From Candidatus Heimdallarchaeota archaeon (GTDB lineage: Archaea; Asgardarchaeota; Heimdallarchaeia; Hodarchaeales; Hodarchaeaceae), in contig JBHLSH010000027.1 of the NCBI GenBank assembly GCA_048881705.1, positions 1 to 41,562 on the forward strand: a stretch of 41,562 nt of DNA, given 5' to 3'. This document shows, in pieces, positions 6,204 to 41,562 of this stretch. Under the pieces are notes generated by a model that was not told the origin of the DNA, made no database searches, and saw nothing but the letters and a program-made list of their open reading frames with translations. The translations under genes were made by a program, and so were the position numbers. The number at the start of each line of letters is the position of its first letter. Position 1 is the stretch's first letter.

Positions 6204-6333
6204 TGGTGCGGGGAGAGGGATTTGAACCCTCGAACGCCTATGCGAATAGATAGCTCAGTATTCAAGAATATTCCTAAACATTCTTGATTAACTCTTGAGT
6301 CTATCCCCGTTGACCAGGCTAGGGAATCCCCGC
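6204..6333 (-). tRNA. tRNA-Leu(CAA) with 42-nt intron at 37/38 (6252-6293); CCA encoded
   Basis: GCGGGGA..TCCCCGC-ACCA acceptor, ATAGA/TCTAT anticodon stem, CT-CAA-G loop, GTTCAAATCC; BHB central helix CTCA/TGAG. Confidence 0.95.
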
Positions 6334-10262: not shown

Positions 10263-10904
10263 ATGACTCCAGACACAGAGGCACCTGACGAAAACAAATT
10301 GGTGCCAAATCTCTATTATGACAAAACAAAATTACTCTTGACTGTTAATAATCCCGAAGCCCGATATCTTCATGAGAACGGATTTTTTGGTAATTGGATT
10401 TCCGAGAATACGCTCTCATTGGCTCCTGAAGAAACATTACTTCTTTTAGATCGAGGAAGGATAGAAATATTTGATGCAACTTCAGGTCAACGGATAACAT
10501 CATCCGAGCTTGTTACGCATTTCTTAAGTGAAATGGTGGACTTTTGGCCACGATATCTGGTGTATAAAGATCTCCGTAGCCGAGGATATGTGGTGAAAAT
10601 CGGAACACGGGTAACGGCACCATTCCGAATATATTCTCGAGGTGGAAAACCAGGTGAATCAGTAAGCAACGTTTCAGTCTTTCCTCTTGCAGAAGGGAAC
10701 TTCCTAGATCTAGATTTTTTAGATCAAATTGTCTCTCAAGCAAGGATAGATCGAAAAAAGCTCTTACTGTCCGTCATAGATAGATTGGGAGACGTAACAT
10801 ACTATACAGCTTCCCAGCTAGAACTTGAACGAAATGAATTGGAATATGAATATAGGGATGAAGGAGTAGATATTACTCCTGATCTTCCAAAGAGACGAGA
10901 ATAA
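10263..10904 (+). CDS. endA: tRNA splicing endonuclease family subunit, probably structural/non-catalytic
   Basis: LSLAPEETLLL, YLVYKDLRSRGYVVK, FRIYSRG, RKKLLLSVIDRLGDVTYY; the catalytic His position is Val. Confidence 0.88.
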   Translation: MTPDTEAPDENKLVPNLYYDKTKLLLTVNNPEARYLHENGFFGNWISENTLSLAPEETLLLLDRGRIEIFDATSGQRITSSELVTHFLSEMVDFWPRYLVYKDLRSRGYVVKIGTRVTAPFRIYSRGGKPGESVSNVSVFPLAEGNFLDLDFLDQIVSQARIDRKKLLLSVIDRLGDVTYYTASQLELERNELEYEYRDEGVDITPDLPKRRE

Positions 10905-12799
10905 TGGCAGATATATATGAATTTAATTCAGAGTCGGCTACTTATGTTCCTGATACATCTGTCATTATTTCCGGCGAATTTAGAAAGTTCTTAACCGAGA
11001 AAAAAATCGAAACTGGCTCAAAAATCATTATTCATGCTTCATTACTAGCAGAACTGGAATATCAGGCCAACAATGGACGTAAAAGTGGGCTTGCGGGATT
11101 AAACGAAATCAGACGTTTGCGGCGGTTTTGCGATGAATATGACATTCTTTTTGAATATGCCGGCAGAAGGCCTAATGTATCAGAAATCAAACTAGCTAGG
11201 GCTGGGGAAATAGATGCACTAATACGTGATTTTGCTTGGAGAGCAACTGGTATACTAATAACATCAGATAAGATCCAACACTTAAGTACCGAAGCTATAG
11301 GAGGAGAAAGCATTTATCTTCAACCTTCGAAATCAGACCTTGAGAAAACTTTAGGTATAGAACGTTACTTTGATAGTGAAACATTGTCTGTTCACCTAAA
11401 ACAGGGTGCAAAGACCTATGTTAAACGTGGAAAGCCAGGCTATGTCACATTTGAGGCTTTTTCGGACGAAATATGCAGTAAAACGGATTTGAAGGAATAT
11501 GCTGATGAGATCATCCAGAAAGCACAGTTATTCGAAGACGCTTTTATTGAGATAGATCGACCTGGTTCCACAATTGTGCAATACGCCAATATGCGGATTG
11601 TGATTTGTCGTCCCCCTTTTGCTGATGGGTGGGAAATCACAGCAGTGCGTCCCCTTGTCAATCTTACAATCGAAGATTATTCTCTTTCATCAAATCTGAT
11701 GGATAGATTAATAAGAAGGGCCGAGGGAATATTGATCGCAGGCAGTCCTGGAGCAGGAAAAACAACCTTTGCACGAGCTTTAGCCTTATTCTATGAAAGT
11801 CATTCACAGGTCATCAAAACTATTGAATCTCCTCGGGATCTCGATCTGAAAACAGAGATTACTCAATATTCAAAAAACTTCGGTAAACGTACTGAAATCC
11901 AGGACATTCTCCTCCTCTCAAGACCAGATTACACAATATTTGATGAGATACGAGATACCGAAGATTTTAAATTATATAATGACCTTCGATTAGCAGGAAT
12001 CGGACTGGTTGGAGTAATCCATTCGAGTACCGCCATCGATGCTATCCAACGTTTTATCGGACGGCTAGAATTAGGTGTAATTCCCAGTGTTCTTGATACA
12101 ATAATCTATATCAAGGCCGGGATGGTTTCACAAGTTCTCGAAGTCAAAATGACGGTGAAGGTTCCTTCTGGATTGACAGAAAGTGACTTGGCTCGTCCCG
12201 TTGTGGAAGTTCGTGACTTTGAGACAAGCGAATTAGTTTATGAGCTATATACGTTCGGCGAACAGACAGTTGTAATTCCACTGGATGATATTGCTAATAG
12301 AATTGAGGAAATTGATGTTTCCACTCTTCAAGAAATTACCGAAGCAATTGAGCAGCTCACTCAGTACCCTGTTACCATCCATCCCAAGGGCCAGCATGGA
12401 AGGCGGTTTAGGGTTGAATGTGCGATTCAAGATATTCCTGTGGTGATTGGTCGTGGAGGAGAGACTATAAAGATGCTAGAAAAGACATTCGGAGTCAAGC
12501 TGGACATCGATAGAAGTAAATCCAATCCAATTCAGGCCAATTTTGACCAGCCTTCGCTATTACGCTCGAATATGCTAGGTCTCCATAAAAAAACTATCCA
12601 ACTGCGGTTTCCAAAGAAGATGAAGAATAAAGAGATTCAATTCCTACTTGAAAGGCCAAATGGAACCTTGAAACCATTCTATATGGCCACAACTGGAAGA
12701 TCAGGGAAAATTAAGCTCTCTTCAACAAGTGAGGAAGGTCAGCTTTTCAGAGATAGCGTTGAACCCGAGGGGCAACGAATCTTCTGGAAAGTGATCTAA
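10904..12799 (+). CDS. pinA: PINA-type PIN-domain/ATPase/KH protein (Holliday-junction branch migration)
   Basis: N-terminal PIN (VPDTSVII), Walker A GSPGAGKTT, DEIRD, KH motif VIGRGGETIK. Confidence 0.9.
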   Translation: MADIYEFNSESATYVPDTSVIISGEFRKFLTEKKIETGSKIIIHASLLAELEYQANNGRKSGLAGLNEIRRLRRFCDEYDILFEYAGRRPNVSEIKLARAGEIDALIRDFAWRATGILITSDKIQHLSTEAIGGESIYLQPSKSDLEKTLGIERYFDSETLSVHLKQGAKTYVKRGKPGYVTFEAFSDEICSKTDLKEYADEIIQKAQLFEDAFIEIDRPGSTIVQYANMRIVICRPPFADGWEITAVRPLVNLTIEDYSLSSNLMDRLIRRAEGILIAGSPGAGKTTFARALALFYESHSQVIKTIESPRDLDLKTEITQYSKNFGKRTEIQDILLLSRPDYTIFDEIRDTEDFKLYNDLRLAGIGLVGVIHSSTAIDAIQRFIGRLELGVIPSVLDTIIYIKAGMVSQVLEVKMTVKVPSGLTESDLARPVVEVRDFETSELVYELYTFGEQTVVIPLDDIANRIEEIDVSTLQEITEAIEQLTQYPVTIHPKGQHGRRFRVECAIQDIPVVIGRGGETIKMLEKTFGVKLDIDRSKSNPIQANFDQPSLLRSNMLGLHKKTIQLRFPKKMKNKEIQFLLERPNGTLKPFYMATTGRSGKIKLSSTSEEGQLFRDSVEPEGQRIFWKVI

Positions 12800-18587: not shown

Positions 18588-18613
18588 TCACCTACAGTTC
18601 CCGGTCATTGTAG

Positions 18614-18708
18614 GCCGCTGTGGCTTAGCTGGTAGAGCGACAGACTCGTATGGTTCTACTCGAATCCGAAAGATCTGTTGGTCGGGGGTTCAAGTCCCCC
18701 CAGCGGCT
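18614..18708 (+). tRNA. tRNA-Thr(CGT) with 22-nt intron at 37/38 (18651-18672)
   Basis: GCCGCTG/CAGCGGC-T acceptor, ACAGA/TCTGT stem, CT-CGT-A, GGGGG TTCAAGT CCCCC; relaxed BHB. Confidence 0.94.
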
Positions 18709-18734
18709 TTCCATTTCTCTCGGGCGAGGGATAC

Positions 18735-37884: not shown

Positions 37885-40122
37885 TTATGTGGAAGATTCA
37901 AATGCATCCAAAATATACGAATATATGGTTTTTTCCTCTCCTGACGATTTGGCGAACAATCGTCGAACAATTAGCTCAGGCGTACTAGCTGCATATTGAT
38001 AATATACAGGGGTACGATCTACCAACAGCTCTAAATCCTCTGAAAGTCCTTGAGCTTCAATTCCATCAATCCTTAGAGGCTCTTTGCTGTATTTTGCAAT
38101 TTCTTGAGCGAGATGAGTGACGAAAATCCCCACAGAATGAGGTGATCGTCCTAATAAATCAAGAAAGGCGGCGATTACACGGGCAGATGCCCCCGGTTCA
38201 GAGATACTCTCCATTTCGTCTGCTAGAACCAAACGAGAATGCGGACTCATAATCATCTGCGAGAGGGTCTGTAACGTAGTTTCAAAAGCACCAGCATCCA
38301 TCTGGCCTGCTGCCTTACGATAGTAATGGAGTTCCTTGAATCCCCCCAACAACGCTTTTTCACACGGAATTGGGAGTCCCATCTGACCAAGGATTACCAT
38401 TACGGCAAGTGAAACGATTAAAGTTGTCTTGCCTCCGCTATTGGCACCAGAAAGTAAGACAATGCGTTCTCCGCTCACAACTCCATCGATCCTTCCAACT
38501 TCCCCTACTGCATAGGATACTGGCTGAACCTTTGCTCCGCCTTGTAGCTCCTGCTGGGTGAGAAACAGGTTACGACCGTTTTTAATTAATAATCCAGTTT
38601 TCGGAGATTCCCCAAGCTGAGGTAAGATCAATTGATATTCTGAAGCGAATTTTCCGAGCATAAAGAGGTAATCAAGTTCCAACATGTAATTTAATGCTTG
38701 TTTGGCAATGTTTTCATATTGTTTGAGTGTTTTGGCCAATCTAGTCTTTAGCTCAAAGGATTTGATGGCACGTCGTTGTCGAAGGTATGTCGTTAACCGG
38801 AAAACAATATCCTCAACGGGATCTACGGGATATCGAAGTTCCCGTGGAAATATTCCTACAAGGTATTCAATTTCCTCGTCCTGGAGGTCGAGGGCCTTGA
38901 TAAGACTTTCTTCCGCTTTATTTATGATCTCTTCAACTGCCATAAAGAGTTCGTCATCCAAGTATTCTCGAAGGTTCGTTCGACCACTTTCGGGAGCGTA
39001 TTGGGGATCTTCGGATGACATCCCCTTAATGAGAGCTAGTATTTTTTCTCCTCCGAGCTCAACTGTAGACTGTTGGAGCTTTTTCTCAAGAGCCTCATTA
39101 AGCCCGATAAGAACTTCATCGAGTTTAGCTTCAAATAGCGTTTCTGCCCGTAACAAACGGGAGTATTCCACATTTAAGTCTGAGGTTGGTTCACCAGATT
39201 CTTCCAGATTCCCCAGCTGTTCTCCCATTTCTCTTAACATCTCGAGATCGAGATTTTCGATATAGACACTTAACGCGGATGACGGTAGGGTTTGAAGGAG
39301 GTGGCTAAGGCCTGCAATTGATTCAAGCGTTCGCTTGTTTCTAGCGAAAAAACCTAGGGTTTTTTCCGGAACAATCTGAACTAGATCATTCCGGGCCGAC
39401 TCGGCGACCGTCACAACATTGGGAAGACTGTCATCGAGAAGGATATCAGAGCCAATCCAGATAATCTCATCATATCCTTTTGTATAATCGCTTATGCGCT
39501 CGATGTCATCAATCAGAGTAACCTCACAATGATAACCTACATCGGATGTGGAGAGATCGTTAAATAAATCTTTGTCGGGGGTGACAATTAATCTTGATGC
39601 AGTGTCAAGGCGTGTCTTTTGTTCCTTAAGAGGAGCTAAATTCCGCAAAAGTGTGTCATATTCCTTGAAAGAGTGAGGGGATGCCCCGATTAGTGATGCC
39701 AATTGTATTCCCCTATCAGCGACATTCTGACGGTTCCTGATTTTATCGTGTGCTGAAATAGGGAGGGGAAAGTAGAGATACAATTTTGAGCGAGAATATA
39801 GTGTATTTGCAAATTTAGCGATAATTTCAATCGTTTGATTGTAGATACGAATTGCATCCTCTGTTTTCAAGAAATTCCGAATATCTTCTCCCGTTTCCTG
39901 GAAATGCAGATTGCGGCACAAGCTTAAAGCGAATTTTTCCCCGATTCCTTCAATAGCTGAGAGTTCAGCTATCCGTGATTCGCGTAATGCCAGTAACACG
40001 GCAGCCTCACTTCCAAATGCGGCTACGAGCCTATCTGCCACAGAGGGCCCAATCCCACGAATATCTCGAAGGTTTGTTACACTCAAAGTCTGTTCCTTTC
40101 GCTTGGCTATCTTTTTAAACAT
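37885..40122 (-). CDS. Archaeal MutS-like ATPase with N-terminal helix-hairpin-helix (no mismatch-binding or Smr domain)
   Basis: HhH motifs IRGIG and IEGIG; LSGANSGGKTT, DAGAFE, LADEME, FVTH. Confidence 0.88.
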   Translation of the reverse strand: MFKKIAKRKEQTLSVTNLRDIRGIGPSVADRLVAAFGSEAAVLLALRESRIAELSAIEGIGEKFALSLCRNLHFQETGEDIRNFLKTEDAIRIYNQTIEIIAKFANTLYSRSKLYLYFPLPISAHDKIRNRQNVADRGIQLASLIGASPHSFKEYDTLLRNLAPLKEQKTRLDTASRLIVTPDKDLFNDLSTSDVGYHCEVTLIDDIERISDYTKGYDEIIWIGSDILLDDSLPNVVTVAESARNDLVQIVPEKTLGFFARNKRTLESIAGLSHLLQTLPSSALSVYIENLDLEMLREMGEQLGNLEESGEPTSDLNVEYSRLLRAETLFEAKLDEVLIGLNEALEKKLQQSTVELGGEKILALIKGMSSEDPQYAPESGRTNLREYLDDELFMAVEEIINKAEESLIKALDLQDEEIEYLVGIFPRELRYPVDPVEDIVFRLTTYLRQRRAIKSFELKTRLAKTLKQYENIAKQALNYMLELDYLFMLGKFASEYQLILPQLGESPKTGLLIKNGRNLFLTQQELQGGAKVQPVSYAVGEVGRIDGVVSGERIVLLSGANSGGKTTLIVSLAVMVILGQMGLPIPCEKALLGGFKELHYYRKAAGQMDAGAFETTLQTLSQMIMSPHSRLVLADEMESISEPGASARVIAAFLDLLGRSPHSVGIFVTHLAQEIAKYSKEPLRIDGIEAQGLSEDLELLVDRTPVYYQYAASTPELIVRRLFAKSSGEEKTIYSYILDAFESST

Positions 40123-40276
40123 GAATTCTAGAATTCTTTTTTGCTTTTTTCTCCTTTAACTCCCACACGGTACTAGTAAATTCGAAATTAAAGACGGTGT
40201 TGGGTTATATTTTCTCGACTCAACAGGAAATCTTCGATTCGCAATATTGACAGTCATAATCATTACCAATCGTTAA

Positions 40277-41191
40277 TTAAATCCCAAGCTTCGTGATTCG
40301 TTTCGGATTCACCTCGCGAATAAAAGTATGTAGCTCAGCAAACGAGCAATGATCACTATATGGGAAAAAATGAACATCAAGGCGTTTGTGGGCCAGTTTT
40401 ATTGCCCATCCCGTCGGTGATATCCGTAGTGCGTCCGAAATTTTGGGATGTAAGGAATTATCAATACCCTGGAGATTTTCAACCATTCTTCTGCTTCCAA
40501 CAAAGACCTGAACATCCTGGCTATCCGTGAAAATATCCCATTCTCCACCAATTTCCTTAAAAATCTCAATTTTTTGAGTAGGGGCCCAAATTTTTTTTCC
40601 AATAGCTTTACTAATTGTTTGAAACAAAATCTCTTTACCTATCTGGTAAGCGGACAACCAGACATTTCTTTCCGGGTAATTCCCCGGGGCATGGATTAAG
40701 GTAAGGATATCCGAAATAAGCTCTCTACGAGAAGGAAAATCATATTTGGGATCTCTTCCATACACGTAGTCCACGTATAAATGATCAGGATTTCTTATTA
40801 ATTCCATCTCTTCAATGATGACTGAACCAAGACGAAAATCGCCTGTATACACTTCCTTCGTTCCATCATTATCTTCTATAACAAACATCAAACTTCCCAA
40901 ACAATGATTGGCGTCTAGACAATGAACCCTAAAATCATCAAAGTCCAAAGATTGGCTAGGTTTGACGATTAGGCACTTTTCACGGGGAATTCGATGTAAA
41001 GCTTTGATAACCGCCGCTGTTTCTCGCGTACACACAACCGTAGAATCTTGAGCGGTAATAATATTCTTTAATCCTCTAGTATGGTCAGAATGGGCATGTG
41101 ATAAGAAAAAATACCCAGATGAAGGTCTCCTCCGATCGTGTCTACCAAAAGGAAATTCATCGAAATAACTTCTGGCGATCGAAGAATACAT
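40277..41191 (-). CDS. SNM1/Pso2/Artemis-like MBL/beta-CASP DNA nuclease
   Basis: FLSHAHSDH, ANHCLGS, YTGDFR, LYVD, YQIGKE, PTGW, PYSDHCSFAEL. Confidence 0.8.
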   Translation of the reverse strand: MYSSIARSYFDEFPFGRHDRRRPSSGYFFLSHAHSDHTRGLKNIITAQDSTVVCTRETAAVIKALHRIPREKCLIVKPSQSLDFDDFRVHCLDANHCLGSLMFVIEDNDGTKEVYTGDFRLGSVIIEEMELIRNPDHLYVDYVYGRDPKYDFPSRRELISDILTLIHAPGNYPERNVWLSAYQIGKEILFQTISKAIGKKIWAPTQKIEIFKEIGGEWDIFTDSQDVQVFVGSRRMVENLQGIDNSLHPKISDALRISPTGWAIKLAHKRLDVHFFPYSDHCSFAELHTFIREVNPKRITKLGI

Positions 41192-41379
41192 GTGGATTTC
41201 CTCTTGATATCTAATCGGGAAAATCTCTTGAATGGGTAATAAATGTGTTATGATTCAGTTTGGTTTATGAGTTTTCCAATTGGTTAATTTACGGTGGTAA
41301 TCCTTATTCCTTCTTGTCCAAGAACGTGGAACGAGTAAAAGGCATCATCCTAGATATTAAACCATCCAAAAGCAGATTG

Positions 41380-41393
41380 CGAAAATTTTTAAA
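41380..41393 (+). promoter_or_regulatory. Putative BRE-TATA promoter for the 5S-like RNA
   Basis: CGAAAA followed by TTTTTAAA, about 75 nt upstream of the 5S-matching sequence. Confidence 0.5.
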
Positions 41394-41465
41394 GACTCTT
41401 AGAATCGCCTTTATGTGAATCTAAAGGTACAGAATCTCACGCTGTATCATGACATCGAGATCCTG

Positions 41466-41562
41466 CCGGAAGTTAAGCCGAGCTCCGTTCTGATCTGTAC
41501 TGTTATGCGCGAGCTTACGGGAACATCAGAAAACGGGTATTGCCCGTTCATAGGGCTCGAGT
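41466..41562 (+). rRNA. rrf: 5S rRNA with halves in swapped order (3' half 41466-41537, 5' end restarting at 41543); cut by the window end
   Basis: GGAAGTTAAGCC..CGTTC..GTACTG..TGCGCGAGC..GGGAA matches the archaeal 5S 3' half; helix V TTCTGAT/ATCAGAA and a GCGA tetraloop are present; then AACGGG-TATTG-CCCGTT (helix I) and CATAG-GGCTCG (pairs with CGAGCT, helix II). Confidence 0.85.

Follow-up and report, generated by a model that had tools for sequence, protein, structure and literature searches.

A conserved, circularly permuted 5S rRNA gene in Asgard archaea, with bulge-helix-bulge motifs and a probable intron

Circularly permuted tRNA genes occur in Thermofilum pendens, and archaeal 16S and 23S rRNAs carry bulge-helix-bulge (BHB) introns. 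Permuted tRNA genes are also cited for Cyanidioschyzon merolae in a paper on a brown-algal mitochondrial 5S rRNA (PMC4267664). A permuted and circular SRP RNA was described in Thermoproteus tenax and T. uzoniensis (Plagens et al. 2015, PMC4731332). In a 2026 paper (PMC12918454), archaeal circularisation is described for 16S and 23S "but not 5S rRNAs". Danan et al. reported low-level circles of the colinear Sulfolobus 5S rRNA, which were not validated by RT-PCR; these circles were set aside as a different phenomenon. In the literature outside subscription papers, neither a permuted archaeal 5S gene nor a 5S intron was found. Although 5S rRNA is universal, its gene could not be predicted in the complete genomes of Heimdallarchaeum, as stated by the authors who describe them (PMC8813620). 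A permuted and interrupted gene would explain why standard tools miss 5S in Asgard genomes. Judged by its sequence, the locus described here appears to encode a functional 5S rRNA in such a permuted order, in an Asgard archaeon of the Hodarchaeales type. This permuted gene is real and conserved, and it is probably another case of BHB-processed permuted RNA genes.

Gene order, surroundings and spread

The window, i.e. the whole stretch of 41,562 nucleotides that was analysed, is the entire contig C27 of a 3.96-Mb bin (91% complete, 7.5% contaminated). The last 77 nt of the window are also the end of contig C32 on its minus strand. This join is unique, and joins of the same kind link many contigs of the bin. 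Positions past 41562 are given here in joined numbering, in which joined 41486 is C32 38827, counting down. The overlap starts one base after a difference at 41485 between this genome and its sister genome G001 (window 41485-41486), and the presence of a related strain in the sample may have led to the contig break. Contigs other than C27 carry the genes for 16S and 23S rRNA.

On the plus strand, the gene consists of a leader, the 3' part of 5S, an AUU cap, the 5' part, a 30-nt insert, a 7-nt piece, and a trailer. The 3' part (41472-41538) comprises the end of helix III, loop B, the 3' strand of helix II, helix V/loop E/helix IV, and the 3' strand of helix I, as indicated by its match to profile positions 45-108 and by its folds. 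Within 41466-41538, CCGGAAGUUAAG represents the 3' strand of helix III together with loop B. The cap (41539-41541) connects the native termini of the 5S rRNA and closes helix I, which is capped in the permuted relatives as well; fused native ends had been proposed in the first-pass annotation. It can be drawn either as the 3-nt AUU on 7 bp, with U41538 and G41542 paired, or as a 5-nt UAUUG on 6 bp. The 5' part (profile positions 5-43) starts within the window at 41542-41562 with the 5' strand of helix I, loop A, and the 5' strand of helix II, and from 41543 it reads CCCGUU-CAUAG-GGCUCGAG.

Past the window end, the 77-nt overlap leads into the minus strand of C32. There, 21 nt more of 5S run to CCGAA (joined 41563-83; C32 38750-38730), followed by the 30-nt insert, the 7-nt micro-exon C CCGG AA (joined 41614-20; C32 38699-38693), which is considered to be the mature helix III strand, and the trailer, with a T-rich run near joined 41671. 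The rest of the 5' part, followed by non-5S sequence, had been foreseen for this region, but the extra 30 nt in loop C had not. A complete canonical 5S starting at 41543, which would have contradicted the permutation, is absent: the C32 continuation is not a full colinear 5S. A tandem partial duplicate was rejected on the same ground.

A profile for which 30 colinear 5S genes of Asgard archaea were used matched the region in swapped order, with model positions 45-108 (E 5.7e-10) followed by 5-43 (E 6e-4). The best score among 200 shuffles was 2 bits, and the locus was the sole 5S match to this profile in the genome. With Rfam RF00001 it reached 17.7 bits, below the cut-off of 38 at which a colinear gene would be called, and no second copy was found in the genome. 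Failure at this cut-off is expected, because the gene is permuted, and it bears out the suggestion that standard 5S models would miss such genes. At the end of the window and in C32, neither 5S nor mtPerm-5S was detected by Rfam scans. In G001 the same gene lies on one contig without a break, so that the permuted order proposed earlier can be read there directly, and six single-contig genomes are also permuted. Identity to G001 is 97-100% in the gene, the insert and the trailer, compared with about 88-91% in the flanks.

A BRE/TATA-like archaeal promoter, putative in function, is located at 41380-41394 on the plus strand, with TTTAAAG at 41388-41394, and transcription would start near 41415. 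The TATA element had been pointed out before, and the TTTAAAG motif is found again at 14 loci of the genus, where it precedes the central helix by 78-85 nt. A scan for sigma-70 promoters and terminators, which does not cover archaeal promoters, gave nothing. The two flanking genes (metallo-beta-lactamase and MptE-like) are the same in about 14 relatives. The gene and its promoter point towards the MptE-like gene in this genome (G000) and G001, and in the opposite direction in about 14 genus members (window 40277-41562 and L007 versus L010-L027). This inversion of the 5S gene in the G000/G001 lineage is newly noted. Because the orientation is flipped in these two genomes, the intron-bearing lineage is also an inverted one. 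It should be mentioned that a Lactamase_B_2/DRMBL (SNM1-like) nuclease gene lies directly upstream of a HhH and MutS_V gene on the same strand (window 37885-41191).

A DNA search recovered the gene in 19 of the 21 members of the genus. Of the 83 genomes of the class, 79 matched a covariance model that represents the permuted precursor. In the phylum sample this model matched 108 of 151, or 87 after subtraction of 21 weak cross-matches in three colinear-gene families; in all these counts, related genomes are dependent samples and incomplete bins cannot show absence. RF00001 exceeded its cut-off in 49 of the 151 genomes, nearly all in the same three families. The swapped order was read directly in the sequence for 17 families. 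According to the permuted model, two single-contig genomes of the class (3.1 and 3.3 Mb) have two copies each. Two strong colinear 5S genes in the bins G023 and G006 (L002, L003) lie beside bacterial 23S rRNA on short contigs: they are bacterial contamination, which could be mistaken for Asgard 5S, and the annotation of these genomes is corrected in this respect.

Several further arrangements were seen among the relatives. G023 (L006) has two permuted copies in tandem, with their own BHB stems and different helix II sequences. At L284 (G009:C16, about 11205-11290), a decayed partial leader and 3' part lie about 350 bp upstream of an intact permuted gene. At L275, L276 and L242, expansions of about 30 nt are present in permuted genes, in the helix I cap (G175) and in helix IV (G146), and a colinear gene (G172) has an insert in loop B.

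The outer bulge-helix-bulge and the opening point

The splicing endonuclease EndA cuts after the second base of each bulge of a BHB. At the present locus, the leader arm GAUCCUG (41459-65, within 41452-41465) pairs with CAGGAUC of the trailer (joined 41622-28; C32 38691-38685, minus strand), and this stem extends to about 14 bp. On the leader side, the motif continues with the central helix CCGG (41466-69) and the bulge AAG, up to 41472; on the trailer side, it is formed by CCGG AAA (joined 41615-21; C32 38698-38692, minus strand). The outer motif is thus GAUCCUG-CCGG-AAG facing CCGG-AAA-CAGGAUC; its outer helix has 7 bp and its central helix 4 bp, and each of the two bulges is 3 nt long. Cuts are predicted after 41471 and after joined 41620, and joining of the ends would give the canonical CCGGAA|GUUAAG. 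Two features of a BHB-processed permuted RNA gene are therefore present: the 3' part comes first, and cuts at a BHB between leader and trailer would rebuild the canonical junction.

A possible pairing of the leader with the trailer had been raised in the first-pass annotation, and comparison among relatives strongly favours it. In an alignment of 33 genes, the leader/trailer stem is 95-96.5% paired, and all seven pairs show double changes. Its covariation score is 0.82, which none of 500 shuffles reached; slid controls gave 0.17 or less. At least five contiguous pairs are present in 33 of 37 distinct leader-trailer pairs, compared with 9% of cross pairings and 2.5% of shuffles. Among 53 permuted loci, the 4-bp central helix is perfect at 40 and mismatched at 12, and 41 loci yield circles of 119-122 nt. 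The junction sites at these 53 loci were picked for a canonical junction, so that only the pairing statistics are independent. Two registers of the BHB are in use, AA|G in some families and GA|A in others, and the junction that they rebuild is identical.

There are two copies of the helix III strand, one in the leader and one in the trailer. The trailer copy is paired with the 5' strand in all 132 pairs compared, with 15 compensatory cells; in the leader copy, 21 of the 132 pairs are broken (84% paired), with no compensation. The pairing and covariation of the trailer copy indicate that the mature RNA would use this copy. The opening point is then the AA|G bulge of helix III and not loop C, where it had been placed before; opening in loop C was rejected on the same covariation. 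The leader CCGG (41466-69) is best regarded as a duplicate that serves as the central helix of the BHB. When the precursor is folded without constraints, the leader CCGG pairs with helix III in the minimum-energy structure (-65.9 kcal/mol), and the BHB conformers are about 6 kcal/mol above this fold. A fold in which the leader pairs with the start of the insert was also considered and discarded, as it arises only when the trailer is cut off.

Variations of the opening point and of the leader occur elsewhere. In some genomes, a different BHB site in the vicinity of loop C serves to open the circle. The permuted 5S at L245, L256, L262 and L278 is opened at other positions, on the 5' side of loop C in three genomes of family f14. 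That of G044 is apparently opened at the intron site itself. In family f3 (L004, L005, L240, L247, L265), an additional hairpin separates the central helix of the leader from its outer helix, and several genomes have two permuted copies.

The insert in loop C

The 30-nt insert (joined 41584-613; C32 38729-38700, minus strand) splits the conserved C-G-A-A-C of loop C at about position 46/47. It has the shape of a BHB, with the central helix UCCG/CGGG (41578-81 with 41608-11), the bulges AAA and AAC, and an inner hairpin, and the insert region alone folds into this shape. Its removal in silico, together with that of the leader and trailer, restores UCUCAUUCCGAAC CCGG AAG, with no base missing or extra. 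The rebuilt 119-nt circle scores 64 bits (E 1.6e-19) on the colinear Asgard profile, compared with 48 bits when the insert is retained and 33 bits for the best genomic piece. The rebuilt ring folds as 5S. It has helices I-V, loops A-E and a length of about 120 nt, and its helices are recovered with covariation.

The insert pattern was present only in G000 and G001 among the 83 class genomes, and all other genus members in which loop C was read are without it. No second copy was found in the genome. Scans of metagenome and genome contigs gave almost only chance matches; a 5S context was found only in L195, which contains the G001 locus. The single difference between G000 and G001 within the insert is in the hairpin loop. 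In addition, five genomes of family f14, which seems to be Lokiarchaeia-like, carry 30-nt inserts at the identical site of loop C. The f14 inserts are of two or three sequence types and are unrelated to that of G000 and G001. All seven inserts are exactly 30 nt long, with invariant UCCG/CGGG, bulges AAN/AAC, and two to five closing pairs, which vary among G-C, A-U and G-U; their inner sequences are identical at 5-10 of 24 positions between groups. Excision raises the profile score by about 16-24 bits in all seven genes.

The insert is thus probably an intron, as judged from the 4-bp central helix, the two 3-nt bulges, the inner helix, and the recovery upon excision of the uninterrupted sequence of the relatives. 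The motif is of the relaxed HBh' type and not of the strict hBHBh' type, since U41577 and C41615 are unpaired and there is no contiguous outer exon helix. The 7-nt exon between the two splice sites makes sense only if it is ligated.

A clue to the origin of the gene might be given by a colinear archaeal 5S that has a 23-nt insert, a perfect BHB, in the helix III bulge (L295:8277-8414, minus strand; G187:C117). The same type is present on two metagenome contigs (L298 and L299, about 2420-2562). The motif is CACG GA|A ... CGUG AA|A, and its site is the junction of the second register, where many Asgard genes are permuted. NusA of the G187:C117 contig resembles Aenigmatarchaeota clusters, which is taken as a lead only; this contig looks DPANN-like and is probably a contaminant in its bin. 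The 23-nt insert possibly reflects the ancestral state, or it could be a retained expansion segment, because positions 52-53 tolerate such segments. A tandem duplication of an intron-bearing colinear gene would give an array that contains a permuted gene, and the permuted gene may have derived from a colinear 5S in this way.

Predicted processing and comparison with known systems

The proteins needed for the proposed processing are encoded in the genome. Genes for both subunits of EndA and for RtcB (the latter on C24) were found, in support of the earlier suggestion that these enzymes act on the precursor, and uL18 and uL5 are also encoded. The structural (beta) subunit of EndA, without the catalytic His, is encoded at window 10263-10904 and the catalytic alpha subunit on C28. 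Most named homologues of the subunit encoded in the window are assigned to Hodarchaeales/Hodarchaeota or Heimdallarchaeota, and some only to Promethearchaeota, which suggests a placement of this archaeon in Hodarchaeales, Heimdallarchaeia. The alpha subunit aligns to crenarchaeal EndA structures, and its specificity loop and the lysine of this loop are intact. The relaxed motif of the insert would need an EndA of broad specificity, and the specificity loop is reported to be present in Asgard and to allow cutting of relaxed motifs (PMC5829648). Many tRNAs have introns, several of them at D-loop, variable-loop or T-loop positions; intron-bearing tRNA genes were noted on C20, C42, C55 and C88, and at window 6204-6333 and 18613-18709.

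The following model is proposed. The gene would be transcribed alone from its own TATA promoter at 41388. The two-subunit endonuclease would cut after the second base of each bulge, making four cuts, at 41471/41620 in the outer BHB and at 41583/41613 around the loop C insert (joined numbering). Two ligations by RtcB would join the ends, with removal of the leader, the trailer and the 30-nt intron. The product would be a covalently closed 5S of 119 nt in which loop C and helix III are canonical, and uL5 and uL18 would bind it. Cutting and joining to such a circle, with removal of the intron, is considered probable on the basis of the motifs and their covariation. If such a circle is formed, it is somewhat more likely than not to stay closed in the ribosome. 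The full reading, in which the working 5S is a 119-nt ring made by two splicing events, such rings are common across Asgard archaea including Hodarchaeales, and the gene may go back to a colinear 5S that had a BHB intron in the bulge where the permuted gene is opened, is held tentatively, at a probability of about 0.45.

In a variant with the same cuts and ligations, the circle is only an intermediate, and its re-opening at the helix I cap yields an ordinary linear 5S. Permuted tRNAs have a circular intermediate, and a 23S circle of Pyrococcus furiosus is re-opened (PMC4267664, PMC12918454); moreover, the cap differs in length and sequence between relatives. However, the circles, at 119-122 nt, already have the length of mature 5S and leave nothing to trim, helix I has just 6-7 bp and is often capped by UUCG-type loops, and no BHB is seen at the cap. 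An engineered E. coli 5S with ends linked by a 4-nt connector functions in ribosomes (PMC7283268). Re-opening is thus possible but rather unlikely. Retention of the insert as an expansion segment, with only the outer BHB processed to give a 149-nt RNA, seems improbable. The uniform length of the seven inserts could mean a structural role, but the loop C expansion sites given in the published survey are 34-37 (PMC7812874), at a distance from 46/47. Furthermore, inserts of unrelated sequence keep the BHB geometry, and the exact loop is regained on excision, with the gain in score mentioned above in every case.

The option that the RNA is used in linear permuted form, with ends near loop C, the leader CCGG as helix III strand and no ligation, had been left open in the first-pass annotation and is even less probable. 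It agrees with the minimum-energy fold of the precursor, and the brown-algal mitochondrial 5S is permuted in its final product, as stated in PMC4267664. It is nevertheless disfavoured by the broken pairs of the leader copy, as opposed to the intact pairing of the trailer copy, and it does not need the trailer copy and the outer stem, yet both are kept across many families. Finally, it is hardly credible that the locus results from faulty assembly, or that it is a dead, partial copy and the true gene for 5S is absent from the bin. The gene does lie at a contig break in a bin that is incomplete and partly contaminated. Against this, it is contiguous in G001 and in the single-contig genomes, the shared flanking genes speak against a mis-assembly, and the permuted model matches nearly all class genomes. 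In addition, the two strong colinear matches, among 41 relatives, adjoin bacterial 23S rRNA on short contigs, and the 5S sequence is better conserved than its flanks.

If the mechanism of cutting and ligation into a ring holds, a circular 5S and a 5S intron exist, and the tRNA splicing machinery is essential for ribosome building in the archaea closest to eukaryotes. The linear 5S of eukaryotes would then either have kept the colinear state or have reverted from a permuted one.

Among the described systems, the 5S of Hodarchaeales is proposed to work like the Thermoproteus SRP RNA. The latter is found in one genus, with proof by RNA-seq and in vitro; the predicted Asgard RNA is an rRNA, occurs in most families of the phylum, and has an added intron. 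Permuted tRNA genes likewise have the 3' part before the 5' part, a BHB at the junction, and a circular product, but their circles need re-opening in the acceptor stem, whereas the Asgard 5S circle has no spacer to remove. The brown-algal mtPerm-5S (Valach et al. 2014, PMC4267664) shares the hairpin-closed helix I and is also missed by standard models. Its opening is at the three-way junction, its final product is still permuted, and the accessible part of that paper names no BHB or splicing; the new ends of the Asgard gene are not at this junction but in the helix III bulge. The 5S expansion segments (Stepanov and Fox 2021, PMC7812874) resemble the insert as hairpins in the helix III-loop C region, but in the accessible part of the survey they are described as retained and no BHB is named. 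The insert is similar to archaeal tRNA introns with relaxed HBh'/hBH motifs (PMC5829648) in its 4-bp central helix, two 3-nt bulges, short hairpin, and patchy presence. It differs from the BHB introns of tRNA, 16S and 23S in that it lies in 5S and leaves so short an exon, only 7 nt, between two splice sites.
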